Source of the DNA: an uncultured Actinomycetota bacterium
GTDB lineage: Bacteria; Actinomycetota; Actinomycetes; Actinomycetales; Cellulomonadaceae
Length of the DNA: 64,000 nt
NCBI GenBank assembly: GCA_963850545.1
Contig: CAWKLP010000002.1
Span: 1,501,934-1,565,933 of the forward strand
Direction: 5' to 3'
Position 1 is the first letter of the stretch. Every line of letters begins with the position of its first letter. The translations under genes were made by a program, and so were the position numbers. Below are positions 22,134 through 51,458 of this stretch, piece after piece. Under the pieces are notes generated by a model. That model was not told where the DNA came from, did not search any database, and saw only the letters and a program-made list of their open reading frames with translations.

Positions 22134-22206
22134 GGGGCCATGGCGCAATTGGTAGCGCACCTGCTTTGCAAGCAGGGGGTTGCGGGTTCGAGTCCCGCTG
22201 GCTCCA
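22134..22206 (+). tRNA. tRNA-Ala (TGC), integration target
   Basis: GGGGCCA acceptor, CCTGC-TTTGCAA-GCAGG anticodon arm, GGTTCGAGTCC. Confidence 0.97.
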
Positions 22207-22208
22207 CC
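22171..22208 (+). repeat. attL core (38 bp)
   Basis: AGCAGGGGGTTGCGGGTTCGAGTCCCGCTGGCTCCACC, identical to 49980-50017. Confidence 0.95.
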
Positions 22209-22659: not shown

Positions 22660-22662
22660 CCC

Positions 22663-23982
22663 GTGGGCAAGCAGAAGCTCCAGCCGGGCGAGCACGGTGA
22701 GATCTTCCTTCAGGAGACCGGCCCGAATAAGTGGCGCGCCCGCACGCGGCTATGTCTGTGGGACAACTCCGAGGTGTGGGTTTCCCGCAACGCGTCGACC
22801 GACGATGCCGCCAGGTTGAAGGTGCAGAAGGGTGTGGTCGAACGCCTCGCTGCGGCGCGCGGGTCGGACGACCTGAAGCCGACGTCGAAGCTCGGACTCG
22901 CGTGTCGGCAATGGATCGAGGAAATGCGAGAGCGTTCCTCGTGGCCGAAGCCGCCGATCCTTCCCCAGTCCATAGACGAATACGAGCGGGTCATCGGCAA
23001 CCACGTCATTCCGCGCCTGGGTCAGCGGCGATTGAACGAACTGACCCCTGCGCTGTGTCAGAAGTTCCTGGACACGCTTCTCAAGCAGGGCAAGGGCGGC
23101 AAGCACAACATGGTCACCACGACGCGGCAGGCCCGAAACGTGGTGAACCAGGTGCTCGACCGCGCCGTCGTGCACGACGCACTGCGGGACAACCCGATGC
23201 GTAAGACGATCGCGCCGTCGAAGGTGAAGCCCGAACCGAAGGCGATCACCGCTCTGGAAATCGGTCGCCTTCGAATGATCGTGCGCGGCTGGGAGGCGTC
23301 GAGGGAAGGCAAGTTGGGGCCGAAGCCGACCGGGCACCTACGCGTAGCGGTCGACGTGATGCTTGGAGCTGGTCTACGGATCGGGGAGGTCATGGCACTG
23401 CGTTGGGGAGAGGTGAATCTCTCCCCCGACGGGCTGCCCACGCTCGCCGTGGAAGCCACCATGACCGACATCAAGGGTCAGGGGGTCGTGCGGCAGGAGC
23501 AGCCGAAGACCCCTGCCGGGGTGCGAACGATCATTCTCCCGCCATTCGCAGTCGATGCGTTGAACTCGATCCGGCCCGCCGTGACGTCCGCCGACATGCC
23601 GGTCTTCCAGGGCCGGCTGTTCAAGGACGGCCGCAACGCCGGGCGGCCCGTGTCGACGCACAACCTCCGCCGAATGCTGCGCACCGCCTTGGAGCTCGCG
23701 GACATGAAGGGAGCAGTGCACCCGCACCTGTTGCGCTCGACAGTGGCGACCCAAGTTGCCCGCAAGATGCGAGCATCGGACGCAGCAGCGCTCCTCGGTC
23801 ACGCGATCGACGCAGGAATCACCGGCAGGCACTACATCAAGCGCCTCCGGCTGGCTCCAGACACCTCGGCGGTACTGCAAGCCATGGTCGAGGCCGGCGA
23901 CGAGGAAGCGGCACGCGAAGCAGCCGAGAACTACGAGGCGGCGGCGGACGCAACTACCAGAGTGGTGGCTGCTCTTCGTTGA
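22663..23982 (+). CDS. Tyrosine recombinase / integrase
   Basis: GLRIGEVMALRW (R), PKT (K), HLLR (HxxR), LLGH and RHY (catalytic Tyr). Confidence 0.93.
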   Translation: MGKQKLQPGEHGEIFLQETGPNKWRARTRLCLWDNSEVWVSRNASTDDAARLKVQKGVVERLAAARGSDDLKPTSKLGLACRQWIEEMRERSSWPKPPILPQSIDEYERVIGNHVIPRLGQRRLNELTPALCQKFLDTLLKQGKGGKHNMVTTTRQARNVVNQVLDRAVVHDALRDNPMRKTIAPSKVKPEPKAITALEIGRLRMIVRGWEASREGKLGPKPTGHLRVAVDVMLGAGLRIGEVMALRWGEVNLSPDGLPTLAVEATMTDIKGQGVVRQEQPKTPAGVRTIILPPFAVDALNSIRPAVTSADMPVFQGRLFKDGRNAGRPVSTHNLRRMLRTALELADMKGAVHPHLLRSTVATQVARKMRASDAAALLGHAIDAGITGRHYIKRLRLAPDTSAVLQAMVEAGDEEAAREAAENYEAAADATTRVVAALR

Positions 23983-31929: not shown

Positions 31930-33507
31930 GTGACCTCGGGCAGCGTGATCGATGCGTACACCAGCGAGCAGGTGCAGACGGCCGTAGCAGGCGCCTTGGC
32001 GGTTGCGCGCAGTGAGGACGAGCTGATCCGGAGGGCTTCGTTCGGCCTGGCGCAGGTGTGTCTGACAGAGCTGCGGGACAGATTCGGATCGGCGCATGGA
32101 CGTACCGCCATTCTCTTTGTCGGCACGGGCAAGAACGGCGCGGACGCGATGGTCGCGGGCAAGCATCTGCGTGAGCGTGGCGTCGCGGTGCACGCGGTCG
32201 CGACCAGCGGCCACGTGGATGCGATCGGGACGCGTCATCTCGACGTCCCGGTCATCGACGCGACCGATGCAGCGGGGCTCAAGCAGGCTCTCGATCTACT
32301 CGCGGGCGCGGACATGGTGGTCGACGGAATCGTCGGCGACGCGATGGTCGGAAGCCTGCGCGCTCCTGCGTGCACCCTCGTGGAGACGATTCCGGACACC
32401 GCTCTGGTCGTCGCTGTGGATCTGCCCAGCGGTGTGGACCCAGATTCGGGCGCGATCAGTGGCGTGCACGTGCGGGCGGATGTCACGGTCACGTTCGCGG
32501 CATACAAGCGGTGCCTGCTGCTGCCTCCGGCAGCCCAGGCCGCGGGACGCTTGGTGTTCGTCGACGTCGGGATCTCGCCGCGCCTCGACCCTGCGGGCGA
32601 GGTCCAGCGACTGACTCCGTCGGGTGTCGCTGAGCGTTGGCCAGTGCCGGGACCTGGTGATCACAAGTATTCGCGTGGCCTGCTCGGCATCGTCGCAGGG
32701 TCGGACCGGTACCCGGGCGCAGCGGTACTGGCGTGCCTGGGCGCCTTCGGGACGGGCGTGGGCATCGTCCGGTATACAGGTCCGCGCCATGTGGGCGACC
32801 TGATTCTGCAGCACGTGCCAGAAGCTGAGAGGTTCCCCGGGAAGGTGGACGGCTACCTGCTGGGCTCAGGCGTGCTCGATGACCCAGATCAGGACCGCGC
32901 GATCGATGAAGCTCTGGCGACCGGTTTGCCATGCGTGGTCGACGCCGGGGCCATCGAGACGTGCGTGCGTCGACGAGCAGCGGGCGACCGGCCCACACCG
33001 GGAGATCGCATCTTGCTGACGCCACATGTCGGTGAGTTGGCTGGTTCCCTGGCCGCGTTCGGGTACGAGGCGACGACGACGGACATCCTCCAGCGGCCTT
33101 ATGAGCACGCGCTGCGGGTCGCGGAGGCGGCCGAGGTGACGGTGCTGTTGAAGGGCTCGACCACGATCGTCGTTGGGCCGGATGGTCGAGCATTCAGCCA
33201 GGACGAAGGGCCTGCTTGGCTAGCCACTGCCGGGTCAGGTGATGTGCTGGCTGGGATCGCCGGTGCGCTCACCTCGGCCGGCCTTACCGCGCTGGACATA
33301 GGTGCCATGGCTGCGTTCGTTCACGGCCGCGCGGCACGTATCGCGGCGGACGACGGCCCGCTGCGAGCCAGCCAGATCGCCGAGCACACGCCGACGGCGG
33401 TGCGGGAACTGCTGGCGGAACGAGAAGCGTCGGTCAGGCCGCGAGCAGGCCGCCGCGGCGGGCGAGGCCGTGCACGTGCGGGCGGGCGCGGGCGCGGTCC
33501 CGAATGA
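31930..33507 (+). CDS. nnr: Bifunctional NAD(P)HX epimerase/dehydratase homologue (YjeF/NnrDE)
   Basis: GTGKNGAD, VAVDLPSGV, HKYSRG, TPHVGEL, LLKG, LATAGSGDVLAG. Confidence 0.85.
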   Translation: MTSGSVIDAYTSEQVQTAVAGALAVARSEDELIRRASFGLAQVCLTELRDRFGSAHGRTAILFVGTGKNGADAMVAGKHLRERGVAVHAVATSGHVDAIGTRHLDVPVIDATDAAGLKQALDLLAGADMVVDGIVGDAMVGSLRAPACTLVETIPDTALVVAVDLPSGVDPDSGAISGVHVRADVTVTFAAYKRCLLLPPAAQAAGRLVFVDVGISPRLDPAGEVQRLTPSGVAERWPVPGPGDHKYSRGLLGIVAGSDRYPGAAVLACLGAFGTGVGIVRYTGPRHVGDLILQHVPEAERFPGKVDGYLLGSGVLDDPDQDRAIDEALATGLPCVVDAGAIETCVRRRAAGDRPTPGDRILLTPHVGELAGSLAAFGYEATTTDILQRPYEHALRVAEAAEVTVLLKGSTTIVVGPDGRAFSQDEGPAWLATAGSGDVLAGIAGALTSAGLTALDIGAMAAFVHGRAARIAADDGPLRASQIAEHTPTAVRELLAEREASVRPRAGRRGGRGRARAGGRGRGPE

Positions 33508-34666
33508 TCAGTTCGCGCAATAGCTCGCGAACGATCGTGGAGTCGTGAACCTCGTCGGAGGAGATCTGCTCGGCGTCCAGTAGGACCAGTGCGGCGGACT
33601 CGTCTTCGCCGCGTCGCACGAAACCCCGGGCCGTGGAGATCAGTGCGGCTGACCGGCGTTCCACGCTTGGGATGTTGTTCAGGTTGAGGCGGGCTGACAG
33701 CTCAACTACGTCGTCCGGGCGCCCGAGCTCGGCGTTGATCGCCACGGCGTGGATGTCGACGTTCCCGGCACCGAACTTCGTCCACGGGTCGTAGTAGCCA
33801 GGCCCGAGGGCGTTGGCTGCGTCCTGCGCGACGCGGTGCAACGCCCAGGCGCGGCCGTCCTGATCGGACTGCGCGGCGCTGACCGCCGCCGCCAGGTGCA
33901 GCATCCCGTACGCGCCCAGAAGGTCCTTGCGCGGATTCGCGGGGTCGATGCGGGTGTGCACCTCGTCGGCAGCGACCAGGCAAATTCGGGTGGCTTCGTC
34001 CTGATGACCTGCGCGCCGGTAAGGACCTGACAGTGCCCAGGCGGACAGCGCGATGAGGTAGGGGTCGTCGGCCTCGCGGGCAATGTGAGCAGCGCGGTCG
34101 GACACGACCCAGGCCAGGTCCCCGGACGGGACGTGGTGCAACCACTGGCGCGTGATCTGGTAGGCGCCCGCCAGCGTGCGAGCGCTGCGCGCCCGGTCCG
34201 ACGACGTGGCATGGGCGGCGTGCGCATCAGCGACGAGTGCGGGAAGAAGGGCACCGACGCCGCGGTGCGCCGAAGGCGACTCATGCCAGATCGTCCAGGC
34301 GTCATCGACGCGGCCCGCCACGTCGGTCAGGTCGGGTGCCGGATCGGTGACCGGGATCGGTCCTGCAGTGCGCATGATGACCTCGCGCAGCGCAGTCACG
34401 GTCTCAGCCTGGGACGGACCGGTGCCAGGGGTCAGCGCATCCAGAGGCCGGCCGATCAAGTCGTCGACGGTGCAGCCGATGACTGACGCGATCCGGACCA
34501 GGTCCGTGAGCCGCTCGGCGTGCCGGCGGCCCTGCTCCACTGCGGAGACCCACTGGACGGACTTGCCGATGCGCTCGGCGAGCGCAAGCTGCGTCACGCT
34601 GGCCGCGCGACGGTGAGCGGCGATTGCCGCTCCCACACCACGTAATAGGTCCGCGTCGTTTGTCAT
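33434..34666 (-). CDS. Xre-family regulator with large helical C-terminal domain
   Basis: IAAHRRAASVTQLALAERIGKSVQWVSAVEQG HTH, followed by ~330 aa of Ala-rich helices. Confidence 0.8.
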   Translation of the reverse strand: MTNDADLLRGVGAAIAAHRRAASVTQLALAERIGKSVQWVSAVEQGRRHAERLTDLVRIASVIGCTVDDLIGRPLDALTPGTGPSQAETVTALREVIMRTAGPIPVTDPAPDLTDVAGRVDDAWTIWHESPSAHRGVGALLPALVADAHAAHATSSDRARSARTLAGAYQITRQWLHHVPSGDLAWVVSDRAAHIAREADDPYLIALSAWALSGPYRRAGHQDEATRICLVAADEVHTRIDPANPRKDLLGAYGMLHLAAAVSAAQSDQDGRAWALHRVAQDAANALGPGYYDPWTKFGAGNVDIHAVAINAELGRPDDVVELSARLNLNNIPSVERRSAALISTARGFVRRGEDESAALVLLDAEQISSDEVHDSTIVRELLRELIIRDRARARPHVHGLARRGGLLAA

Positions 34667-34711
34667 GGCCACCACGATAGGCGGCCTGCGGGGTAACCAA
34701 CAGGCTCAGAA

Positions 34712-34847: not shown

Positions 34848-35192
34848 GTGATGGGACTTCGAGGCCACGACTTGGACCTGGTCAAGCACGATCACCCGAC
34901 GCCGGTCGCCGAGCGGCCGCCGGTCGATGATCTGACGCGCGCGCTGGGCGACGCGTTGACGGCGATACGCGCCCTCGGTCCCAACCGGATCGAGCTGGTC
35001 ACCGTGACCAAGGATCGGATCTCTCTGCAGCCCACGGACCTGGAAGACGGCCAGCAGATCGCCCACGCTCTGGGCTGCGATCTTCCACTGGATCACCGGA
35101 TGTTCGTGCCCGGGCACACACTCTGGACCGGGACCCGCTACGGACTGGAGATTCAGGTCCGGTCGGTCTTGCGTCAGGTGGTGGCCCGATGA
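34848..35192 (+). CDS. Hypothetical protein, first gene of the cluster
   Basis: GAGGGG RBS; ATGA overlap with the HAD gene. Confidence 0.6.
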   Translation: MMGLRGHDLDLVKHDHPTPVAERPPVDDLTRALGDALTAIRALGPNRIELVTVTKDRISLQPTDLEDGQQIAHALGCDLPLDHRMFVPGHTLWTGTRYGLEIQVRSVLRQVVAR

Positions 35193-36313
35193 ACGCCGCA
35201 ACCGTCACCTGCATACGGACCCTCGTGGCGCTCGACATCGACGGGACCCTCGTGGACGGCAAGAGCAAGATCCCGCCCGGGACGGTTGAGGCGCTGGACC
35301 TGGCCCGCGCGGCAGGACACGAGGTCGTACCCGCCTCCGGGCGGTCGCTCGCCGGATTGCTGCCAATCGCGGTCCGGTTGGGGCTTACCGACGGATGGGC
35401 AGTGGCCTCCAACGGCGCCCTGACCGTACGCCTGGATCGGTCCGCGCCGTCGGGGTACGACGTCGTTGACGCCCGGACGTTCACTCCAGGGCCGGTGATC
35501 AGCCGCGCCGTGGACCTGGTCCCGGGTGTCCGGGTCGCGGTGGAGGAAGTCGGGTGGGGGTGGCGCACGAACCACCCCTTCGCCCCGGGAGAGCTCAACG
35601 GGCAGCAGAAGCCAGCGACGCTGGACTACCTGACGTCCGAGCCAGCAACCCGGGTCGTGCTCGCTGCACCAGGCATCGGGCGGTTCGTCGATGCGCTGGG
35701 TGCTGCCGGGGTCACGGTCACCCCGGCGGGGCCGAACTGGTGCGATGTGACAGCGCTCGACGTCGACAAGGCGGTCGCGCTCGATGGGGTGCGTAAGCAC
35801 CTGCACATCCCCGCTGAACGCACGGTGGCGGTCGGCGACGGCATGAACGATCTGACGATGCTGGCCTGGGCCGGGCGCTCGATAGCTATGGGGCACGCAC
35901 CCGCGATCGTGCGCAGCGCGGCCGTCGAAACGACCGGCACGATCGACGAAGCCGGGGCGCTGCCCGTTCTGGCCTCGCTCGTCCCGGACATCGACGGTTC
36001 ACTGTCATCGCTGGCCGCCCAGATTGCGGTCGGGGCGCGCACCGCGCCGGGCCCGGCCGTTTTGCGGGTGTGGCACGGCACCGGGCCGGACCTGTCCCGG
36101 TGCGAGATTTGGACCCTCCAGACTTCGCACTGGGTCCGGCACGCACCTGTCCCGTCCGGCGTCGGCACCACCATGCGCGCAATCGAAGCCGCCGCGCTGG
36201 AGGCGGGCCTGCCGTTCCCACGCGGGGACGAGGGCCGCCGCCGCGCTCAATGGCGCAGTGTCACCACCCGCAGTGGTCCGGCCGGGTTCGAACTCCCGCT
36301 CAACAGTTTCTGA
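35189..36313 (+). CDS. Cof-type HAD hydrolase (phosphatase) with C-terminal extension
   Basis: ALDIDGTL (motif I), ASGRS, DKAVAL, AVGDGMNDLTML. Confidence 0.88.
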   Translation: MNAATVTCIRTLVALDIDGTLVDGKSKIPPGTVEALDLARAAGHEVVPASGRSLAGLLPIAVRLGLTDGWAVASNGALTVRLDRSAPSGYDVVDARTFTPGPVISRAVDLVPGVRVAVEEVGWGWRTNHPFAPGELNGQQKPATLDYLTSEPATRVVLAAPGIGRFVDALGAAGVTVTPAGPNWCDVTALDVDKAVALDGVRKHLHIPAERTVAVGDGMNDLTMLAWAGRSIAMGHAPAIVRSAAVETTGTIDEAGALPVLASLVPDIDGSLSSLAAQIAVGARTAPGPAVLRVWHGTGPDLSRCEIWTLQTSHWVRHAPVPSGVGTTMRAIEAAALEAGLPFPRGDEGRRRAQWRSVTTRSGPAGFELPLNSF

Positions 36314-36486: not shown

Positions 36487-37827
36487 ATGAGTGAGATCGC
36501 AGACAGGACGGCGGGCTCCCGGCAAGGCATGGGCTGGGGTGGCGCGGAGGCAACCGCTGTTGTCGTTCGTCCCGGACCTCGTCTGGCAGGCAGGGTCCGA
36601 GTGGACGGCTCGAAGAACGCGGCACTACCGCTGCTCGCCTGCGCTGCGGTGACGGAAGGGCCGGTGCACGTGTCGAACGTTCCGTCGAGTGCGGATGTGG
36701 GCGTGATGCTCCTGCTCCTGGAACACGCTGGCTTCCAGGTGGACCGCTCGACGGACGATCAGCAGTCCGTGACCGTTCGCCTGGCGTCGGAGCACCGCCC
36801 TCACGGACTGGAGCTCGCTGGGGCCATCCGGGCGTCGTACTACTTGGTTCCCGCACTCCTGGCAGCCCATGGCCGCGCCGACCTGCCGTGGCCTGGTGGC
36901 TGCCAGATCGGAGATCGTGGGATGAACCTGCACTTCGACGTCTACGCCGCATTCGGTGACGAGATCGAGCTTGACTCCACTGGGTACCACGTAGCGGCGC
37001 GGGAGACTCCGGCCCGGGTGACAATCGATCTTCCGTTCCGGTCCCGGGGCGCGAGCGTCGTGGCCGTTCTGCGGGCCGTGGTCGGACGCGTGCGAATGGA
37101 GTTGGGCAACCCGAATCTCTCCCCAGAGTTCACCGGCATCCTCGACAGCCTGCGCTCAGTCGGCTGGCGCATCGATCTGCGTCCGTCCCGCCTCCGGATG
37201 GTTCCACCACAGGTGGTTGACGCTGCGCTGGTGTCGTGGCGGGTTCCCGGAGACAAGGTCGAGGCCGGGACTCTGGCATGCGCGATAGCGGCCACGGGCG
37301 GCAGTGGGCGTGTCGAGGGGGTCGCTGGTCGTGACGTCGAGTGCGTCGCTCGACTTCTCAACAGCGTCGGCGTTGGCATCGGCGTCGAGGACGACGCGCT
37401 CGTCGTCTTCGGCGATGGTGAGCGGATAGGCCATGGTTTGCGAGCGAGCGCATCCCTGGATCCAGCGGGCCTGGACGCCGACTTCGAGCCGGCGCTGATG
37501 GCCCTGGCGCTGTGTTTGCCCGGGACCCACGAGTTTTCCGACGCGATCAACCCCGGACGGCACGGCAATCTGCTGGCGCAGCTCGCCCGCCTGGGTGCGG
37601 ACATCGAGGCGCTGACCGCGACCACGGCCCGCCTGACAGGGCCGCAGCATCTTGCCGGAGGGACGGCAGAGGCTACGGACATCCGTACCGGTTCGGCCCT
37701 ACTCATTGCTGCCTTGACCGCGTACAACGAGACGGCGGTGACTGGACTCGCACAGCTTCGACGTGGGCACGCCGACCTGCCCGGGAAGCTCCGTGCGCTG
37801 GGCGCGGACGTTCGGGAGCGACCGTGA
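36487..37827 (+). CDS. MurA/NikO-like enolpyruvyl transferase
   Basis: DGSKNAALP, IRASYY, PGGCQIGDR, TDIRTG, LRRGH; GGAGG RBS; diverged acceptor-binding motifs. Confidence 0.85.
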   Translation: MSEIADRTAGSRQGMGWGGAEATAVVVRPGPRLAGRVRVDGSKNAALPLLACAAVTEGPVHVSNVPSSADVGVMLLLLEHAGFQVDRSTDDQQSVTVRLASEHRPHGLELAGAIRASYYLVPALLAAHGRADLPWPGGCQIGDRGMNLHFDVYAAFGDEIELDSTGYHVAARETPARVTIDLPFRSRGASVVAVLRAVVGRVRMELGNPNLSPEFTGILDSLRSVGWRIDLRPSRLRMVPPQVVDAALVSWRVPGDKVEAGTLACAIAATGGSGRVEGVAGRDVECVARLLNSVGVGIGVEDDALVVFGDGERIGHGLRASASLDPAGLDADFEPALMALALCLPGTHEFSDAINPGRHGNLLAQLARLGADIEALTATTARLTGPQHLAGGTAEATDIRTGSALLIAALTAYNETAVTGLAQLRRGHADLPGKLRALGADVRERP

Positions 37828-39029
37828 CCGAACGCATCCTGGAGCGGATCGTGGCGACGACTGACGTGCATTCCCAGCTCCGTGAGGTCGGCCCGCTGCT
37901 CGCCGGGCTGCACCGTGCACGGCGCGACGCTCTGGTCGTGGACTGCGGGGACTTCTTCGAGGGAACCGGCTACTACCGACTCGGCCAGGGCCGGATCGAG
38001 ACGGAGATCATGAACTCGATCTACGACGTCGTCGCCCCAGGAAACCACGGCTGGCGCCACCATCTGCAGCCCGGCCTGCGCGAGCTGACCGTGTGCGCCA
38101 ACGTCGCCGACGCCTTCAGCGGCGAGGCACTGTTCCGCCGCCTGCACCGGACCGTCATCGGCGGACGGCGGGTGGGCGTGACCGCCGTCGTTGGCGAGCA
38201 GGCGTTTGCGGCGATACCCATGGGCGAGCGGTCTGGGCACCGTGTCGTCGACCCTGTCAGCGCGCTCATGGACGTGTGGGAGAAGCATCGTCATGAGGTC
38301 GAGGCGTGGGTGCTGCTGTCACACTCCGGCTTTGAACACGATGTTCGCCTCGCCGAGGCTTGCCCGTTCCTCGACGTCATCTTCGCGGGCCACTGCCATA
38401 GTGAGCGCCATGGACCCGAGCGGGTCGGCTCAACTGTCGTCGTCAAGGGGGCTGAACTCGCGGCAGGCTTCTCGACCGCTGCACCAGCCGCGGAAGGTTG
38501 GCGCGCGAGTAGCGCCCGGTTCGAGCCGGTCGACACGCTTTCTGCGCCCCTGGAGTCGTTCGGCCGTCAGGTCGAACTCCTCCGCGACCAGTTGGCGACA
38601 GCGATCGGCCCGCTCGATCCCTCCTGGAGGGACCGCGACCTTGACCGCAGGGCTGCGCTCGAACAGATTGCCCAGCGTCTTCGCACAAGCGCGCCCTCTG
38701 CCGTGGTGGTCCTCAATGAATCCGCGCTGCGACAGGTCCACCTTGGGCAGGTGCTGACCGCCGACAACCTGCTTGCCATCGAACCGTTCGGCAACCGCGT
38801 CGTGCATGCCCGGGTCGAGCACGAGACAGATCTCTCAGCGCTGCTCGCTGAGCTTGGGGAGCGGTCCGGTCCCTTGGTCGTCGACCCCCACTCGGCTCCC
38901 GACCGTGTGAGCAGCGTCCTGACCACGGACTACCTCGCCGAGACGCTTCCCGTTCACAGCCCGCCCACGACAGTTCTCGAACTCAGCCAGGCCGTCCGTC
39001 ATGTCCTCTGCTCGGAGGTTACGTCATGA
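37824..39029 (+). CDS. Calcineurin-like metallophosphoesterase / 5'-nucleotidase-like (no signal peptide)
   Basis: TTDVHS, DCGDFFEG, PGNHG, LLSHSG, FAGHCH. Confidence 0.88.
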   Translation: MTERILERIVATTDVHSQLREVGPLLAGLHRARRDALVVDCGDFFEGTGYYRLGQGRIETEIMNSIYDVVAPGNHGWRHHLQPGLRELTVCANVADAFSGEALFRRLHRTVIGGRRVGVTAVVGEQAFAAIPMGERSGHRVVDPVSALMDVWEKHRHEVEAWVLLSHSGFEHDVRLAEACPFLDVIFAGHCHSERHGPERVGSTVVVKGAELAAGFSTAAPAAEGWRASSARFEPVDTLSAPLESFGRQVELLRDQLATAIGPLDPSWRDRDLDRRAALEQIAQRLRTSAPSAVVVLNESALRQVHLGQVLTADNLLAIEPFGNRVVHARVEHETDLSALLAELGERSGPLVVDPHSAPDRVSSVLTTDYLAETLPVHSPPTTVLELSQAVRHVLCSEVTS

Positions 39030-39562
39030 TCCTCACCGGTCCCGAGATCACTGCATCAGTGCGCGACGGGCGGTTGCGGGTCACGCCGTTCGAGCCCGCG
39101 CAGGTCAACCCGAACAGCTACAACGTGCGCCTTGGCCCGACTCTGATGACGTACGTGGACCCGGTCATTGATGCGCATCGGCCGAACCCGACGTCCATCA
39201 TCGAGATTGGCCCGAAGGGGTACGTGCTGCAGCCGAACGAGCTGTACCTCGGGCACACCCTGGAGGAGGTCGGCTCGGACGTGTTCGTGCCGCTGCTGTT
39301 CGGCCGGTCCTCGGTCGGGCGGCTCGGCCTGTTCGTGGAGATCACCGCCCCGATCGGTGACATCGGCTTCCACGGCCAGTGGACTCTCATGCTCGCCCCC
39401 ACCCGTCCGCTGCGTGTCTACGCCGGGATGAAGATCGGGCAGATCATGTTCTTCGTCGCCGCCGGCCCGCTCGAGCTGTACACGGGCAAGTACCAGGCAG
39501 CGCAGGGGCCGCAGGCCTCGCGCTACTGGCACGACATTCCACGCCCGGCGGCGGCCTCATGA
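39026..39562 (+). CDS. dCTP deaminase-like protein, copy 1 (RSS motif present, catalytic Glu absent)
   Basis: QVNPNSYNVRLG, GRSSVGRLGL, GDIGFHGQWTLM, YTGKYQ. Confidence 0.88.
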   Translation: MILTGPEITASVRDGRLRVTPFEPAQVNPNSYNVRLGPTLMTYVDPVIDAHRPNPTSIIEIGPKGYVLQPNELYLGHTLEEVGSDVFVPLLFGRSSVGRLGLFVEITAPIGDIGFHGQWTLMLAPTRPLRVYAGMKIGQIMFFVAAGPLELYTGKYQAAQGPQASRYWHDIPRPAAAS

Positions 39563-40095
39563 TCCTGACCGGCCCCGCGATCGCCGCCGCCGTCGCGGCC
39601 GGAGATATCACCATCGACCCGTTCGACCCGAACCGGCTGTCCGCGAACGCGTACGACTGGCGGCTCGGGTCAACGCTTCGGGTCTGCACCACGGATCTGG
39701 ACGCCGCGATTCCGACCCCCTTTACCGAGGTCACCATCCCTGAGTCGGGGTACGTCCTGGAACCCGAGGTCCTGTATCTCGGGGTAACCCTGGAGCAGAC
39801 GGCCTCCGACCGGTATGCCCAGATGCTCAACGGCGACCTTGTCACCGGCCGCCTCGGTATCTGGGTGCACGTCTCCGCGCCGCTGGGCCATGTCGGGCAC
39901 GCGATCCGCTGGACGCTGGAGATTCGCGCCGTCAGACCCGTTCGCATCTACCCGGGCATGACGTTCGGCAAGCTCATCTTCCTGCGCACTTACGGGGCGG
40001 CGGCCAGCTACCAGCAGCTCGGCCGCAAGTACACGTCGACCGACGGCATCGATATCTCCCGGCTCCACGAGGAACTCCAGGAGGACAACCCGTGA
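39559..40095 (+). CDS. dCTP deaminase-like protein, copy 2 (Glu present, RSS motif absent)
   Basis: RLSANAYDWRLG, GDLVTGRLGI, GHVGHAIRWTLEI, GRKY. Confidence 0.8.
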   Translation: MILTGPAIAAAVAAGDITIDPFDPNRLSANAYDWRLGSTLRVCTTDLDAAIPTPFTEVTIPESGYVLEPEVLYLGVTLEQTASDRYAQMLNGDLVTGRLGIWVHVSAPLGHVGHAIRWTLEIRAVRPVRIYPGMTFGKLIFLRTYGAAASYQQLGRKYTSTDGIDISRLHEELQEDNP

Positions 40096-41255: not shown

Positions 41256-42301
41256 ATGCCCTCCACCACCGAACACCTCCACGCCCTGGCGACCGCAGGA
41301 GTCCACAACGGCGTCTACCCCGGTGCAGTGTGGGCCGTCGGCAACGCCGACGGCGTGATCGACCGCGGCGCCACCGGCCTCCTGGACCCAACACGTTCCG
41401 ACGAGCCCATGAAGCCGGACACCGTGTTCGACATCGCGAGCCTCACCAAGATCCTCGCCGTCTGGACCACCATCGGGACCCTCTGGCAGGACAGGCACCT
41501 GGACCTCGACGAGCCCCTCGGCCAGCTCTGGCCCGGCGTCGCCGGATACCCGCTCGGCCAGGTCACCGCCCACCAGCTCCTCACCCACACCGCCGGACTG
41601 CCGCTGCGCGCCCAGCTCAAGAGCCTCTACGGCACCGACCCTGACGCCATCCGAAGCGGCGTCCTGCACGAAGCCCTGCACCGCCCACCGGGCCAGGCCG
41701 TGGAGTACACCGACCGCGCCGCCCTCATCCTCGGCTACCTCGCCGAGTACCTCAGCGGCGAGCAGTTGGACCATCTCGCCACCGACCGCGTCTGGCGGCC
41801 CGCTCGGCATGCGAGAGACCCGATATGGACCCCTGCCGACGAACGTGGCCGCGCGCTGCGCCCCCACCGAGCTCGACGACGAGACCGGCGCGCACCTCAA
41901 GGGCGTCGCTCACGACTTCTCCGCCCGCCTTCTCGGCGGCGTATCCGGCATCGCCGGAGCGTTCTCCACCCTCGACGACCTCACCGTGCTGCTGCGCTAC
42001 CTGCTGGACCCTGCCACCGCCGCGACGCCCCCGGGCTTCGGTCCCGAGTGGATCGCGCGAGTCCCTCAACGTCCACACCGGCGGCCTCGAACCGGCACGG
42101 GGCCTGTTCTGGCACCCGGCTCCCGGCACCGACCCCGCCGACCAGACCTGGACCCACTACGGCTTCACCGGCACCGCCATCTGGCTCAACCCGAAACAGA
42201 ACCACTGGGCGGTCCTGCTCACCAACAAGCTCTACTACACCCGCGACCGCGAACCCCTCGCTAGCATCCGCGACCAGTTCCGCGGCATCGTCTTCGGCTG
42301 A
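41256..42301 (+). pseudogene. Beta-lactamase-related serine hydrolase, two apparent frameshifts
   Basis: ASLTK (SxxK), EYTD, HYGFTG. Reading frame shifts near 41800 and 42060; could be real decay or assembly error. Confidence 0.8.
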
Positions 42302-42452
42302 TTCAGCCTCACGGACAAGCAGCGCGCGGCTGGCGCCTGGCGCTGACCCCGCGACGGTGATCCCAGAAGGCGCGGGAGGCCGGCACGCGGAGGCGACGGG
42401 CGGGGGACCCACCTCCGCGGCTCATCCCAGACCCAGACCCTCTCCAGACCAG

Positions 42453-42553
42453 TCCCACCACAACCCCCACATCACACCCAACCCCCACATCCCACCCCCA
42501 ATCCCTCACCCTCTACCACATCCCCCTAAATCACCCCCCAATTCCTCCCCCCA
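42453..42553. other. 101-nt tract with no G on the + strand (G-run-rich - strand)
   Basis: No G between 42452 and 42554; upstream of the relaxase. Confidence 0.85.
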
Positions 42554-42659
42554 GATCCCTCCCTCAAATTCCATCACGCCTCTTGCAGATTGAGGTACAT
42601 AGAGCAATTCCGGACCTGGTTCCGCTCGGACACCTCCTGCTGTAGGAGGTGTGCAGCGG

Positions 42660-45600
42660 ATGGCTGCGACGATTGCTGTGATGTCGGCAGGGGATGGGTA
42701 CTCGTACTTCATGAAGTCGGTCGCGACCGGCGACGTGGACCGGTCGATGAGTACCCCGTTGACGCGGTACTACACCGAGACCGGGACCCCGCCGGGCCGG
42801 TGGCTGGGTTCCGGGGTCGCGAGCCTCGGCTCAGACGAGCTGGGTCGCCTGCTCGTAGGCGATCTGGTGACCGAGGAGCAGATGGCCCGGCTCGTGGGCA
42901 AGGGCCTGGACCCGATCACCGGCGAACAACTCGGCCGCGCCTACCCGGTCTACGGCAAGGGCAAGGGCGGCAAGTCTCGGCGGGCGGTGGCGGGATATGA
43001 CTTCACGTTCTCGCTGCCGAAGTCCGCCTCGATCCTGTGGGGCGTGTCCGACGCCGGGATCCAGGAACAGATCGTCGCCGTCCACCGCGCCGCGGTGGTC
43101 AAGGTGTTCGAGTTCATGGAACACGAGCTGGCCGCGACTCGGACCGGTGCGTCTGTCGCCGGGAACGCGACGAGCGAGGCAGGGGAGGGCGGCGCGGTCG
43201 CCCAGGTCGACGTCACCGGTTTGATCGCGATGTTCGTTCGATCACTGGGACTCGCGGACCAACGACCCGCACCTGCACACCCACGTCGTGGTCTCCAACA
43301 AGGTCAAGACGCTGCTCGACGGGAAGTGGCGGTCCCTGGACGGGCGCGGGTTGCACGCCGCGACGGTCGCGATGTCCGAGCTGCACGAAGCGATCGTGAT
43401 GGACGACCTGACCCGCACCCTCGGCGTGGGAGTGGGAACTACGGGCCAGGGCCGGGCAGGGCCGTAACCCGGCTGGTCGATCAAGGGCGTCCCGGACGAC
43501 CTGGTCGATTGCGTTCTCCCAGCGCTCGGAGCAGATCAACACCCGCACCGACGAACTGATCGCGCAGCACGTCGCGAAGTACGGGCGCCGGCCCAGCCCG
43601 AGCACGATCGACAAGTACCGCCAGCAGGCCAGCAAGGAGACCCGCCCGGACAAGACCCACCACTCCCTGGCCGACCTGACCACGGAGTGGCGGCAACGCA
43701 CCGCCGAGATCCTGGGCCGTGACCCAGGCAGAGTGGGCTCGCGAACTGGTCGCGAACCTGCCGCCGCGGATGCTGCGAGCCGATGACGTCCCGCTGGACC
43801 TGCTCGACGACCTTGCACAGACAGTGCTGATCGTGGTCTCGGAGAAGACGCCGGTGTGGCGACACTGGAACCTGTACGCCGAAGCCGTCCGGCAGACCAA
43901 AGATCTGAGGTTCGCCACCGCCGAAGACCGCATGGCCGTGGTCGCTGCGATCACCGATCGGGCCGAGGCTGGCTCGGTGCGGCTGACGCCGCCCGACCTC
44001 GCTGCCACGCCTGCCGAGTTCCGGCCGCGCGGACGGCACCAGCATCCTGCGCCCGAAGCACTCCGCCCTCTACTCCTCACAAGCCCTGCTCGACGCAGAG
44101 GCCCGGCTCCTGGACCGGGCCAGTACCCGCACCGCACCGACGATCACGCTGGACGCCGTCGAGCACGCCATCACCAAGGGCAGCCCCGGCGAGCGGGCGT
44201 GGACGGTCTCAGCCGAGCAGGCCGAAGCCATCGCCCGTGTCGCTGTCTCGGCCCGGCAGGTCGACCTGCTGGTCGGCCCGGCCGGGACGGGGAAGACCAC
44301 GACCATGCGCGCTCTGCGCGCGGCATGGGAGCAGCGAGCACGGGGCAGGGTCCGTGATCGGGCTGGCGCCGTCGGCTGCGGCTGCGGCGGTCCTGGCCGA
44401 TGACCTGGGCATCGAGTGTGAGAACACCGCGAAGTGGCTCTACGACCACGTCCACCAAGGCACGGCGTTCCGTGACGGGGCAGTTGGTCATCATCGACGA
44501 AGCCACGCTCGCCGGGACCCTCACCCTGGACCGGATCACCGCGCACGCCGCGGAGGTGGGGGCGAAGGTGCTGCTGGTCGGTGACCCGGCCCAGCTCCAG
44601 GCCGTCGAGGCCGGCGGAGCCTTCGCTCTCCTGGCCGCCGCCCGCAACACCGAGGACGGTGTGCCGGAGCTGACCGAGGTGCACCGGTTCACTGCACACG
44701 TGGGAGAAGCACGCCTCCCTGGCCCTGCGCCACGGACACGACGAGGCGATCGACGCCTACCTGGACCAAGGCCGGGTCCGCGACGGTGACACAGAGGCCA
44801 TGGTCGAGGCCGCCTATGCCGCCTGGCAGACCGACCTCGCAGACGGCAAGGACTCCGTGCTCGTCGCCGGGGACAACGAGACCGTGCGGGCGGTCAACGA
44901 GCGCGCCCGCGCCGAACGACTCCAGACCGGGGCCACTGAACCCGGCCGGGCTGTTCGACTCGCCGACGGGCTCGACGCTTCGGCAGGGGACGTGGTCATC
45001 ACCCGGCGTAACGACCGCCGCCTGTGCACCCGGAACGGCTCCTGGGTACGCAACGGCGACCGGTGGACCCTCGTCCAGGTCCGCGACGACGGGTCGGTCA
45101 TCGTGCGCCGACCGGAAGCCAAGTACGGCAACACGATCGTGCTCCCCGCCACCTACGCCGCCGAGCACTTCGACCTCGGCTACGCCGTGACCACCTACCG
45201 CGCCCAGGGGATCACGGTCGACACGAGCCACCTCATCACCGGGCCGGGCATGACAAGGGAGCACCTGTACGTCGGCCTGACCCGCGGGCGGGAGACCAAC
45301 ACCGCCTACGTCATCACCGACACCCCATTGGAGATCACGCCTGACGACTACGAGGACCTGACACCCAGGGGCGTCTTGGCCCGGATCGTCCGCACGGTCG
45401 GAGCCGAGAAGGCCGCCACGCAGGCGCGTCGGGACGAGCGCGAGCGGTGGGGATCGGTCGCACAGCTCGCCGCCGAGTACGAAACCCTCGCCGCAGCCGC
45501 ACAACGCGACCGCTGGACCGGACTCCTCCACCACTCCGGACTCTCAGCCCGCGACGCGGACCAGGTCATCACCGCACCCGCATTCGGAGCCCTGACCGCC

Positions 45601-46179
45601 GAGCTCCGCCGCGCCGAAGCCGACGGCCACGACGTCGAACACCTGCTGCCCCAACTCGTGGCCCAGCGCGGCCTGGACGACGCCGACGACGCGGCAGCCG
45701 TCCTGCACCACCGCCTTGCCACAGCCACCACACAACCCGTCCGCCACGACGGGCTGAGCATCCAACGCCGCTCGCCGCGCCGAATCGCGGGCCTTCTCCC
45801 TGAGGCGATCGGACCTATGACGAGCGAATACCGGCAGGCACTCCAGGAGCGGGCAGCACTGATCGAGCGACGCGTCACCGACATCGTCCAGCGCGCCATC
45901 CATGACCATGAACCCTGGCTCGCCCCGCTCGGCCCCGAACCAGGCGACACCAGAGCCCGACGCACCTGGCAGACCGCCGCACGCACGATCGCCGCTTACC
46001 GCGACCGCCACGGCATCAGTAGCGCGGCACCACTCGGCACCGAGCCAGTCACCACCGACGCACAGGCCGTCGACGCCGCGCGCTCCGCGACGGCGCTACG
46101 TCGAGCGACACGACCCCCGAGCGCACAGCTCCGGCGACCAGCCGTCGGGGCCCACGAGGGTCGAGGTATCGGCATGTAG
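42660..46179 (+). pseudogene. MobF/TrwC relaxase-helicase, multiply frameshifted
   Basis: VMSAGDGY, RYYTETGTPPGRWLG, YDFTFSLPKS, out-of-frame FDHWDSRTNDPHLHTH (HUH), GPAGTGKT, IIDEA, VGDPAQL, GYAVTTYRAQG. Confidence 0.88.
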
Positions 46180-49816: not shown

Positions 49817-49979
49817 CCAGCGACCACCGGCGCCGACGCTTGCCTACGGATGCCAACCGTGTCAGGCTGAACCTGAGCGGCGCAGGAATGGCGGAATCTA
49901 GCCATTTCTGCACCAACATCAGGGCTAACACGGCCCACTCAAGACAGCCTTGCGAGCGAGCGTCGAAATCCGCTCCACC

Positions 49980-50017
49980 AGCAGGGGGTTGCGGGTTCGA
50001 GTCCCGCTGGCTCCACC
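49980..50017 (+). repeat. attR core (displaced tRNA-Ala 3' half, followed by A completing CCA)
   Basis: Identical to 22171-22208. Confidence 0.95.
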
Positions 50018-50026
50018 ACCTGACCG

Positions 50027-50050
50027 AAGCCCGGATTCGTCCGGGCTTTT
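50027..50050 (+). terminator. Intrinsic terminator (probable original tRNA terminator)
   Basis: AAGCCCGGA-TTCG-TCCGGGCTT plus T tract. Confidence 0.8.
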
Positions 50051-50255
50051 GTCGTTCCCGTGGTCGGACGCCCCGCATTGGAGAGAACACGTACGCGCAC
50101 CCTGTGGCATCCCCGTACGTTTGGCCCCGACGCCGGATTTTTCACCCCCAATCTGTCTCCGGCTGCTGACAAGTCAGGACCCCTTTCATATCGTCGAGCG
50201 GGAGGGGCACGCACCACCCAACTGTTTCGGCCCCTCGTCATCCGAGGAGGACAGC

Positions 50256-51458
50256 GTGTCCCTGACCAGGAAACTCATCGGCACTGCCGCCGCATTGACC
50301 GCCGCCCTATCGGCCGCGGTGGTTGCCACACCGACGGCCACCGCAGTACCCGACACCATCCCGCTCACGATCACCAACGACTCGGGCCGCGGCGACCAGG
50401 TGTTCATCTACGTCCTGGGTGAGACGGGTGGTCAGCTCGGCTATGCCGATGCCCAAGGAACGTTCCATGCCTGGCCGGACGCCGGGAGCGTCCCCGAGCC
50501 GGCACCCGACGCGTCGATCGCCGGGCCCGCGAACGGGCAGGACGTCACGATCCAGCTGCCCAAGCTGTCGGGCCGCGTGTACTTCTCGTACGGCAGCAAG
50601 CTCGACTTCAAAATCGTGAACGACGGCCGGCTCGTGCAGCCCGCCGTGCAGAATCCGAGCGACCCCAACCGGAACATCCTGTTCAACTGGACGGAGTACA
50701 CGCTCAACGACTCCGGCCTGTGGATCAACAGCACCCAGGTCGACTTCTTCTCCGCGCCCTACCAGACGGGTCTGCGCTCCTCGAGCGGCGAGCTGAAGCA
50801 CACCGGGATGCTCAAGCCCGACGGTTGGGACAACGTGGTCTCGGCGCTGTCGCAGCAGGACGGCTGGGACGGTCTCGCGCAGACCGGCTCCGACGGTTCT
50901 GTGCTGCGAGTCCTCTCCCCCGGCCACGGGGTCGGCACGGGCCAGGTCGACGCGAACATCCTGTCCGACTACGTCGACCGGGTCTGGAGCAAGTACTCCA
51001 GCGAGACCCTGACGGTCGTGCCCTACGGCGACCAGCCGGAAAAGAAGTTCCTCGGCACCGTCTCGGGCGACACCATGACGTTCACCGACACCTCGGGCGC
51101 CGTCATCACTACGTTCCCGAAGCCCTCGGGCGAGTCGATCTTCGGGTGCGCCGGTGACCTGGCGGCGCCGAACAACGACATCGGCGCCATCGCCCGCACG
51201 CTGTGCGCCGGCTTCAACCGGTCCTCGCTGCTCGACAGCACCACGCAGCCCACCCAGGACCCCGCCGGCTTCTACCAGGACCCGGTGACGAACTACTACG
51301 CCAAGTACATCCACGAGCAGATGGCGGACGGCAAGGCGTACGCGTTCGCGTTCGACGACGTCGTGGCGCAGGAGTCGCTGGTGCACGACGGCGACCCGAC
51401 CGAGGCGTTCATCCAGCTGGACCCGTTCGCCGGGGCGGCCACACCGATCGGCGGCTGA
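50256..51458 (+). CDS. Secreted GH64 beta-1,3-glucanase (catalytic domain only)
   Basis: Signal peptide, IPLTITNDSG, QPAVQNPSDPNRNILFNWTEYTLN, NSTQVD, YAFAFDDV. Confidence 0.9.
   Translation: MSLTRKLIGTAAALTAALSAAVVATPTATAVPDTIPLTITNDSGRGDQVFIYVLGETGGQLGYADAQGTFHAWPDAGSVPEPAPDASIAGPANGQDVTIQLPKLSGRVYFSYGSKLDFKIVNDGRLVQPAVQNPSDPNRNILFNWTEYTLNDSGLWINSTQVDFFSAPYQTGLRSSSGELKHTGMLKPDGWDNVVSALSQQDGWDGLAQTGSDGSVLRVLSPGHGVGTGQVDANILSDYVDRVWSKYSSETLTVVPYGDQPEKKFLGTVSGDTMTFTDTSGAVITTFPKPSGESIFGCAGDLAAPNNDIGAIARTLCAGFNRSSLLDSTTQPTQDPAGFYQDPVTNYYAKYIHEQMADGKAYAFAFDDVVAQESLVHDGDPTEAFIQLDPFAGAATPIGG

Follow-up and report, generated by a model that had tools for sequence, protein, structure and literature searches.

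A MurA-derived enolpyruvyl transferase clade heading a conserved mobile operon in actinomycetes

The 64,000-nucleotide stretch of DNA analyzed here (hereafter the window) lies on contig CAWKLP010000002.1 of an uncultured actinomycete of the Cellulomonadaceae, whose genome spans 6.2 Mb in 5 contigs. It carries a gene for an enolpyruvyl transferase, called EPT below, that public databases label as MurA. To our knowledge, just three acceptor specificities have been established for the enolpyruvyl transferase fold, those of MurA, AroA and NikO/PolA, and two of these three classes are major antibiotic and herbicide targets. The original prediction, made from the letters of the window, described the protein as a MurA paralogue that keeps the phosphoenolpyruvate (PEP) chemistry but has a remodelled acceptor site. 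We find that EPT retains the MurA catalytic residues, falls in a clade separate from the housekeeping enzymes and heads a conserved operon on a mobile island, and we weigh which acceptor this combination favors.

The transferase gene and its coupled operon

The EPT reading frame is open over 446 codons without stops, with GGAGG placed 8 nt 5' of its ATG (Table 1); a second possible start lies at M15 (position 36529), and homologues start at about residues 13–22. The product matches PF00275 (EPSP_synthase) along its full length (residues 28–434) at 113.9 bits, against a gathering score of 22.8. EPT opens a closely coupled series of genes that continues through a metallophosphoesterase (MPE), two dCTP-deaminase paralogues (DCD1 and DCD2) and a GT4 glycosyltransferase, with a 4-nt ATGA or GTGA overlap at every junction; a serine-hydrolase gene (BLA, for its beta-lactamase fold) begins after a 78-nt gap 3' of GT4. 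Neither murB nor any other mur gene was found among the Pfam-scanned open reading frames (ORFs) in or around the operon, as the original prediction had stated in noting the lack of peptidoglycan genes nearby.

Table 1. Features of the window that bear on the transferase operon and its island (positions are those of the window).
Feature	Position	Strand	Evidence or remark
tRNA-Ala (TGC)	22134..22208	+	ARAGORN; its 3' 38 nt (22171-22208) = attL
Tyrosine integrase of the island	22660..23982	+	Pfam Phage_integrase, Phage_int_SAM_3, Phage_int_M
XRE-family regulator, 413 aa, divergent from the operon	33434..34675	-	Pfam HTH_31 and HTH_3
orfX, 114 aa, stop overlaps HAD start (ATGA)	34848..35192	+	no family
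Cof-type HAD-IIB phosphatase (HAD)	35189..36313	+	Pfam Hydrolase_3 2e-34; TIGR00099, TIGR01484
EPT, 446-aa enolpyruvyl transferase, RSKDN-signature clade	36487..37827	+	PF00275 1e-32; NCBIfam scores; alignment; tree; AlphaFold2 model
MPE, 5'-nucleotidase/UshA-family metallophosphoesterase, two-domain, 401 aa, GTGA overlap with EPT stop	37824..39029	+	Pfam Metallophos
DCD1, dCTP-deaminase paralogue	39026..39562	+	TIGR02274 101.1 versus cut-off 92.8
DCD2, dCTP-deaminase paralogue	39559..40095	+	TIGR02274 62 bits, below cut-off
GT4 retaining glycosyltransferase, 361 aa	40092..41177	+	Pfam Glycos_transf_1, Glyco_transf_4, GT4-conflict
BLA, serine hydrolase, class C beta-lactamase/esterase fold, SxxK motif	41256..42301	+	Pfam Beta-lactamase; two frameshifts
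attR, 38-nt direct repeat of the tRNA-Ala 3' end	49980..50017	+	exact match, 0 expected by chance

To establish how far this arrangement is conserved, we ran tblastn searches for the partner genes on the 82 best related loci, which come from 79 species genomes and three further contexts. MPE was recovered in 77, DCD1 in 75, DCD2 in 74, GT4 in 71 and BLA in 70, with all five present in 64, and their order downstream of EPT is always the same. The deaminase paralogues are the best conserved, at about 79% identity for DCD1 and about 72% for DCD2.

A separate clade with the MurA catalytic set

EPT scores below both curated MurA cut-offs, with 231.3 bits against the 392.7 of TIGR01072 and 248.3 against the 297 of NF006873. 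A bona fide MurA of the same genome (G000:C2:60602-61900) scores 427.8 bits, above the cut-off, and carries the SVGAT, IEPE and YENR segments along with the catalytic Cys. Thus, the description of EPT as a MurA paralogue holds, and the idea that it is the sole MurA of its host was rejected. Against solved MurA structures in the PDB, EPT reaches 104–151 bits and the genome's own MurA 188–240 bits. Judged by these scores, EPT is a true paralogue and not the cell-wall MurA.

We aligned EPT to E. coli MurA (from NC_000913) and to the genome's own MurA. All nine of the MurA catalytic or PEP-binding residues checked (K22, N23, R91, C115, R120, D305, R331, R371 and R397) are kept, as K43, N44, R115, C139, R144, D332, R358, R400 and R426, and all nine are conserved across the clade described below. 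The original prediction had called these residues intact, and the alignment confirmed every equivalence that it quoted. GSKN (residues 41–44) holds K22/N23, IRAS holds R91, PGGCQIGDR (136–144) holds C115/R120, GLDADF (328–333) holds D305, INPGR (354–358) holds R331, TDIR (397–400) holds D369/R371, with D398 as the D369 equivalent, and LRRG (424–427) holds R397. On this basis EPT is predicted to be an intact, catalytically competent enolpyruvyl (1-carboxyvinyl) transferase.

Against this conserved background, five positions at which MurA has V163, E188, R232, P303 and F328 are occupied in EPT by R187, S212, K257, D330 and N355. To gauge whether this RSKDN pattern is peculiar to EPT, we tabulated the signature motifs from a search of 1.84 billion 50%-identity representatives, of which about 150 full-length representatives were analyzed. 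They fall into two discrete classes, VERPF with its close variants (about 100) and RSKDN (23 exact), and the only sequences between the two are ones that have also lost catalytic residues. Further positions are invariant in the clade (Y118, Y119, F184, N210 and H359), and the altered pattern of the acceptor segments is invariant or nearly so throughout it. By the measure of these alignments, the altered residues are a family signature and not the product of chance. The RSKDN class also reaches beyond the actinomycete clade, with members 31–37% identical to the query in metagenomes and in an Armatimonadota metagenome-assembled genome (L090).

The phylogeny agrees with the motif classes. We built a maximum-likelihood tree of 79 rows, rooted on AroA and without NikO and PolA, by a quick search with support from the Shimodaira–Hasegawa-like approximate likelihood ratio test (SH-aLRT) only. 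In it, all signature-bearing and degenerate sequences form one clade (SH-aLRT 100, stem 0.57), inside which the actinomycete operon clade is nested (support 99, stem 0.96). The canonical MurAs, including those of E. coli and of the host genome itself, lie outside the signature clade, whose exact sister the tree does not resolve. EPT therefore does not cluster within housekeeping MurA, in keeping with the distinction drawn in the original prediction, and on the tree and the motif classes the signature sequences are a separate, MurA-derived clade.

The predicted structure is MurA-like. The AlphaFold2 model of EPT (predicted local distance difference test score, pLDDT, 93.9) adopts the two-domain inside-out alpha/beta barrel fold, and Foldseek places it closest to the closed, liganded MurA structures 1uae and 3kqj, with a template-modelling (TM) score of 0.88 and a root-mean-square deviation of 2.1 Å, ahead of NikO (0.81) and AroA (0.77). 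AroA (EPSP synthase) shares the superfamily fold and the PEP chemistry (PF00275) but gives at most 32 bits in the PDB comparison, and its shikimate-3-phosphate site is not conserved in EPT. MurA (E. coli 1UAE, TIGR01072) is the nearest characterized relative, at about 27–30% identity, and the evolutionary source of the clade; EPT shares its two-domain fold, its PEP and catalytic residues including the loop Cys, and most of its contacts to the uridine diphosphate.

These likenesses raise the possibility that EPT is a genuine second UDP-GlcNAc enolpyruvyl transferase, which would feed the operon pathway or would be a mobile-element copy of MurA that is a spare, is regulated differently or is insensitive to an inhibitor. 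The full catalytic set, most of the polar UDP-GlcNAc contacts (PMC13750019), the fit to liganded MurA, the database name and the acceptor promiscuity that MurA enzymes can show (PMC11588093) all speak for it. Nevertheless, we consider it unlikely, since EPT falls under both curated cut-offs, five near-invariant MurA positions are replaced as a block clade-wide, and the clade is separate and sits on a long stem. Moreover, EPT is an extra copy in every carrier genome checked and never replaces MurA there, its neighbors form a mobile nucleotide operon and not a set of cell-wall genes, with no linked murB or other mur gene, and copies decay when the operon breaks up. The inhibitor-insensitive version fares no better for fosfomycin. 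The catalytic Cys is kept, so bypass by Cys replacement does not apply, and the fosfomycin-bypass idea, already held unlikely in the original prediction, was rejected.

Our literature search recovered no paper on the EPT clade or its operon. A Streptomyces gene named murA2 (sven5810 / vnz_28735) is a BldM-WhiI developmental target, the name being applied at a single S. venezuelae locus (PMC4125116, PMC11005364); the literature gave no link between murA2 and the cassette, and the sequence and neighbors of murA2 were not compared.

The acceptor site and the candidate reaction

Three segments that line the acceptor side of MurA differ in EPT as the original prediction had quoted them, with SRGAS for SVGAT, NLSPE for AREPE and INPGR for (V)FENR; in addition, the MurA FPTD motif reads LDAD. 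In residue terms, the block replacements are V163R, E188S, R232K, P303D and F328N, accompanied by T304A, I94Y/W95Y, E329P, N330G and F332H. The reach of these changes is narrower than the segments suggest. The contacts S162, G164 and V327 that lie inside them are kept or conservatively replaced, and the actual changes are V163R, E188S, F328N, E329P and N330G.

To separate the parts of the site, we mapped onto EPT the polar contacts of UDP-GlcNAc in 1UAE, which comprise R120, D305, N23, R91, D123, L124, K160, S162, V163, G164 and V327 (PMC13750019, Table 1). Their equivalents are R144, D332, N44, R115, N147, L148, F184, S186, R187, G188 and I354, so that 7 of the 11 are identical (R120, D305, N23, R91, L124, S162 and G164). 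The other four changed, D123 to N (D or E in most clade members), V327 to I, K160 to F and V163 to R. EPT essentially preserves the two elements that hold the uridine diphosphate, the RPxDLH loop and the S-x-G turn, and H125 is also retained. By contrast, the changed side chains cluster around the sugar, with V163R, P303D/T304A and F328N joined by the loss of two acidic residues near GlcNAc. These are E188 (now S) and E329 (now P), both of which contact GlcNAc in a S. aureus model (PMC13750019). The proposal of a remodelled acceptor site thus stands in part; the uridine/diphosphate loop (R120, D123 as N147, L124, H125, S162 and G164) is largely retained. The kept contacts to the uridine diphosphate favor an acceptor whose uridine-type handle sits as it does in MurA, and we infer from the residue pattern that the moiety facing PEP is different and possibly anionic.

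The non-canonical acceptor put forward in the original prediction, such as a nucleotide or the GT4 product, accordingly fares unevenly. The separate clade, the signature and the nucleotide operon support it, but the retained uridine loop argues against a free nucleotide bound in the manner of NikO. NikO/PolA, the UMP 3'-O-enolpyruvyl transferases of nikkomycin and polyoxin biosynthesis (4FQD), offer the obvious precedent, being likewise MurA-like transferases of a specialized actinomycete nucleotide pathway, with the Cys kept and a downstream phosphatase. They make 3'-enolpyruvyl-UMP, which is dephosphorylated later (PMC5365060). In an analogous route for the operon, the DCD pair would produce dUTP or dUMP from dCTP, and a (deoxy)uridine nucleotide would be capped by EPT at its 3'-OH and then stripped of its 5'-phosphate(s) by the 5'-nucleotidase-like enzyme, leaving a nucleoside for GT4 and the hydrolase to tailor.

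The partner genes lend this route some weight. DCD1 keeps R110, S111, R115 and D128 but has Met in place of the catalytic E138 (as aligned to the Dcd of E. coli and that of the same genome). DCD2 keeps E138 and H121 and has lost R110, S111 and D128. The same complementary losses occur in both other loci aligned, those of K. setae (L004) and Streptomyces (L006), and a normal Dcd is encoded elsewhere in the genome (G000:C2:1288195-1288731, 213.8 bits). The MPE model (pLDDT 92) has a compact two-domain 5'-nucleotidase/UshA/CD73 fold with every residue of the metal-binding motifs invariant, and its top structural matches are the E. coli c4898 5'-nucleotidase with uridine or cytidine, CD73 and UshA; its PDB sequence matches are 5'-nucleotidases, while its NCBIfam matches (UshA-like, NadN and SoxB) are all weak. 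Two deaminase paralogues and a 5'-nucleotidase-fold enzyme are thus translationally coupled to EPT, the latter with pyrimidine-nucleoside complexes as its top structural matches, and NikO-like capping accounts for the DCD pair better than the uridine-linked reading does, but for the conserved uridine loop worse.

EPT itself, however, is no nearer to NikO than MurA is. It scores 79.5 bits against NikO, compared with 82.6 for the genome's own MurA, and is in effect equidistant, and NikO ranks under all MurA structures for the EPT model (TM 0.81 versus 0.88). This comparison was made by bit score and TM score only, without residue-by-residue alignment or tree placement. The retained MurA loop holds the uridine diphosphate away from the PEP site, and for a ribose 3'-OH acceptor one would expect a different mode of binding. 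No radical-SAM partner (NikJ/PolH) or peptidyl-nucleoside gene was detected by Pfam in the operon or the neighboring genes. The operon differs from the NikO/PolA clusters further in its partners (the DCD pair, GT4 and the serine hydrolase) and in being a widespread, mobile cassette and not a rare antibiotic cluster. NikO-like capping is therefore improbable in our estimate.

The remaining partners are less specific. The nearest solved relative of GT4 is a UDP-glucose:tetrahydrobiopterin glucosyltransferase, followed by phosphatidylinositol-mannoside mannosyltransferase, a predicted glycosyltransferase (3c4q/3c48) and BshA, with weak NCBIfam matches to MshA/BshA; several of these solved relatives glycosylate small molecules. 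Its match to the Pfam family GT4-conflict was set aside, being weaker than those to the generic GT4 models, and the source of that family (PMC8195603) does not contain this operon. No signal peptide was found at the N-termini of EPT, MPE, DCD1, DCD2, GT4 or the hydrolase, so that all six proteins look cytoplasmic, and the conserved operon core contains no exporter.

Taken together, the reading we favor, at slightly less than even confidence, is that EPT is a pathway-dedicated transferase of the distinct MurA-derived clade whose acceptor is linked to a uridine nucleotide and is not UDP-GlcNAc. EPT would use PEP through the MurA machinery of Lys, Cys-loop, Asp and three to four Arg residues, and would transfer enolpyruvate to a hydroxyl of an acceptor that binds, MurA-like, through a uridine-type nucleotide handle. 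Instead of GlcNAc, the acceptor would probably present another sugar or alcohol, which may be acidic, attached to a carrier resembling UDP or dUDP. A DCD1/DCD2 heteromer could handle deoxycytidine or deoxyuridine triphosphate, the cytoplasmic UshA/5'-nucleotidase-like MPE could remove the nucleotide or phosphate handle, and GT4, of the small-molecule-acceptor type, and the serine hydrolase could carry out tailoring. Our data show clade membership, the conserved catalytic set, the signature, operon linkage, mobility and the extra-copy status of EPT in the carrier genomes checked; from residue patterns and gene context we infer what the acceptor is, in which order the steps run and what role the product has.

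Several points weigh against this proposal. Residual or full activity on UDP-GlcNAc would fit the kept contacts and the closed, MurA-like model equally well, and the contact list combines the table of a docking and modelling paper (PMC13750019) with our alignment, in place of a liganded structure of EPT. A nucleotidyltransferase for the synthesis of an unusual NDP-sugar is missing from the operon. Nor does a UDP-sugar route have an obvious need for two dCTP-deaminase paralogues, which would suit a (deoxy)nucleotide acceptor better. Both the activity and the acceptor of EPT are proposed from sequence and structural models. Finally, the serine-hydrolase gene of the window is frameshifted near 41800 and 42045; by tblastn, intact homologues of 347 and 350 residues match three successive frames here and one in the related locus L083. 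The listed 445-aa ORF at 41256-42593 is an out-of-frame read-through, with the true BLA end near 42301. Accordingly, the local pathway may be incomplete or defective, or the shifts may be assembly indels.

Mobility, distribution and possible role

The operon lies inside a 27.8-kb integrative island inserted in a tRNA-Ala gene and flanked by 38-nt repeats (22171-22208 and 49980-50017), next to a gyrA / DUF3566 / tRNA-Ile / tRNA-Ala region. The right repeat falls within a listed ORF for a GH64 beta-1,3-glucanase (49929-51458), so that the real start of this gene must lie downstream. The cargo includes an insertion sequence, helix-turn-helix genes, a fragment of a TrwC relaxase and the defence gene Shedu. 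Across 42651-46179, only a 302-aa ORF matches TrwC; the ORFs after it are separate, and one gives a weak RecD-like match, so that the island relaxase looks fragmented. The small gene orfX had no match in Pfam, NCBIfam or PHROG.

The state of the hydrolase and relaxase genes also bears on whether EPT is merely a decaying or non-catalytic relic carried on the island. The frameshifted BLA gene, the short N-terminal TrwC piece by the operon and the existence in the clade of degenerate paralogues without catalytic residues would fit such a fate. One of the degenerate relatives (L105:7266-10416) is accompanied by a WhiJ-type triad and GT4 only and sits between prophage capsid and terminase genes; another (L106:8001-9308) is an orphan next to a regulator–flavoprotein pair. 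Both have lost catalytic Lys, Cys and Arg residues and are operon remnants. The window copy, by comparison, keeps 9 of 9 catalytic residues checked and the whole signature in an open frame with a good Shine-Dalgarno sequence, has a confident AlphaFold2 model, and is 81–83% identical to intact copies in three congeners and one metagenome. We regard a relic as highly improbable. Among the 82 loci, a set biased towards intact EPT copies, intactness of EPT and completeness of the operon show no clear relation (64 intact and complete, 12 intact and incomplete). A separate case is Streptomyces poriferorum P01-B04, in which an in-frame TGA (L062:5301-5303) occupies the catalytic Cys codon (PWPGG-TGA-AIGERGM) while the rest of the gene and operon is intact. 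This genome encodes adjacent selA and selB genes, and a check for a selenocysteine insertion sequence downstream of the TGA gave a fold no better than shuffles; a nonsense mutation, a sequencing error and selenocysteine are all possible.

The cassette is widespread but patchy. Hundreds of actinomycetes, among them Streptomyces, Kitasatospora, Kribbella and Nonomuraea, have homologues about 55–66% identical; at least 79 loci were confirmed, and one scan matched as many as 563 species genomes. Within the Streptomycetaceae, 26 of 301 species genomes carry it, and all 26 have at least one further MurA-type match, as do the window's genome, G002 and G003. In the window's own genus (that of Promicromonospora sp. 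AC04) it was found in 3 of 24 other species, and in 0 of 16 other families of the order. Three Streptomyces plasmids carry the cassette, and the one examined is linear. The phage databases IMG/VR and INPHARED yielded only canonical MurA-type copies (VEQPW/F signature, 28–32% identity). No RNA run was listed for the operon, and four soil-metagenome DNA runs contain small shares of it. In a subset of Streptomyces genomes (e.g. G127:C28:4048-5286), we also observed a third MurA-like paralogue, at 120–140 bits to the query, above their housekeeping MurA (about 115 bits) and far below the operon type.

In contrast to the fixed downstream order, the genes upstream of EPT vary. A HATPase_c_2 gene is present in 46 of the 82 loci, and its position in Streptomyces loci is taken in the window by HAD, which is found in just 2 of the 82 besides the window; orfX and HAD are confined to the Promicromonospora-type variant (L003 and L083). 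In a 595-aa metagenomic protein (P0040), an operon-type EPT is fused to a HATPase_c_2/HATPase_c domain. The XRE regulator gave weak tblastn matches (23–32% identity) upstream of EPT in 55 of the 82 loci, usually on the opposite strand, and its Streptomyces form of about 420 aa was found in 58. In most Streptomyces loci (e.g. L006:5569-7385; 55 of 82), a PF02441 flavoprotein of the HFCD/UbiX family comes after the divergent XRE gene of about 420 aa; in the window this place is occupied by YjeF/Nnr (31930-33507). Upstream in Streptomyces-type loci there are also an unknown protein of 565 aa (45 loci) and a NikA-like gene (21 loci). These XRE, flavoprotein and NikA-like surroundings suggest a larger conserved mobile backbone. 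The non-actinomycete signature members are set in other company, adjoining genes of the HIT, NUDIX, 5'-nucleotidase, His_Phos, APH kinase, ADI/amidinotransferase-fold and beta-lactamase-fold families. The HIT, NUDIX and 5'-nucleotidase/UshA families include enzymes that cleave nucleotide-X or NDP-X bonds.

Defence genes are found near the cassette, with Shedu and toxin-antitoxin-like genes in the window and, at L003, genes for ATPases and helicases of kinds that defence islands often contain. Of ten proteins scanned against PADLOC-DB 2.0, SduA (Shedu) matched strongly and a 459-aa ORF (44800-46179) gave two marginal matches (E ~3e-4); HAD, EPT, MPE, DCD1, DCD2, GT4 and BLA gave none. It is conceivable, though we think it distinctly doubtful, that the cassette is an inducible, mobile, nucleotide-based system of immunity or competition. 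In that case, a half-site DCD heteromer would divert dCTP to deoxyuridine nucleotides, EPT would block a hydroxyl such as the 3'-OH with enolpyruvate to give a chain-terminating or otherwise poisonous pyrimidine nucleotide, and MPE, GT4 and the serine hydrolase would mature the product or protect the host. If true, this would give the fold a fourth functional class and add a new nucleotide-analogue defence alongside the viperins.

Whatever the product, it could serve as a metabolite or a signal, or act in defence against phages or other elements. Current annotation wrongly labels the clade MurA; the clade marks a conserved mobile operon and is a candidate fourth specificity class of the enolpyruvyl transferase fold. 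Identifying its acceptor would add a reaction to the family and correct hundreds of annotations, and could bring to light, in actinomycetes that produce antibiotics, a new metabolite derived from nucleotides or a new mechanism of defence.

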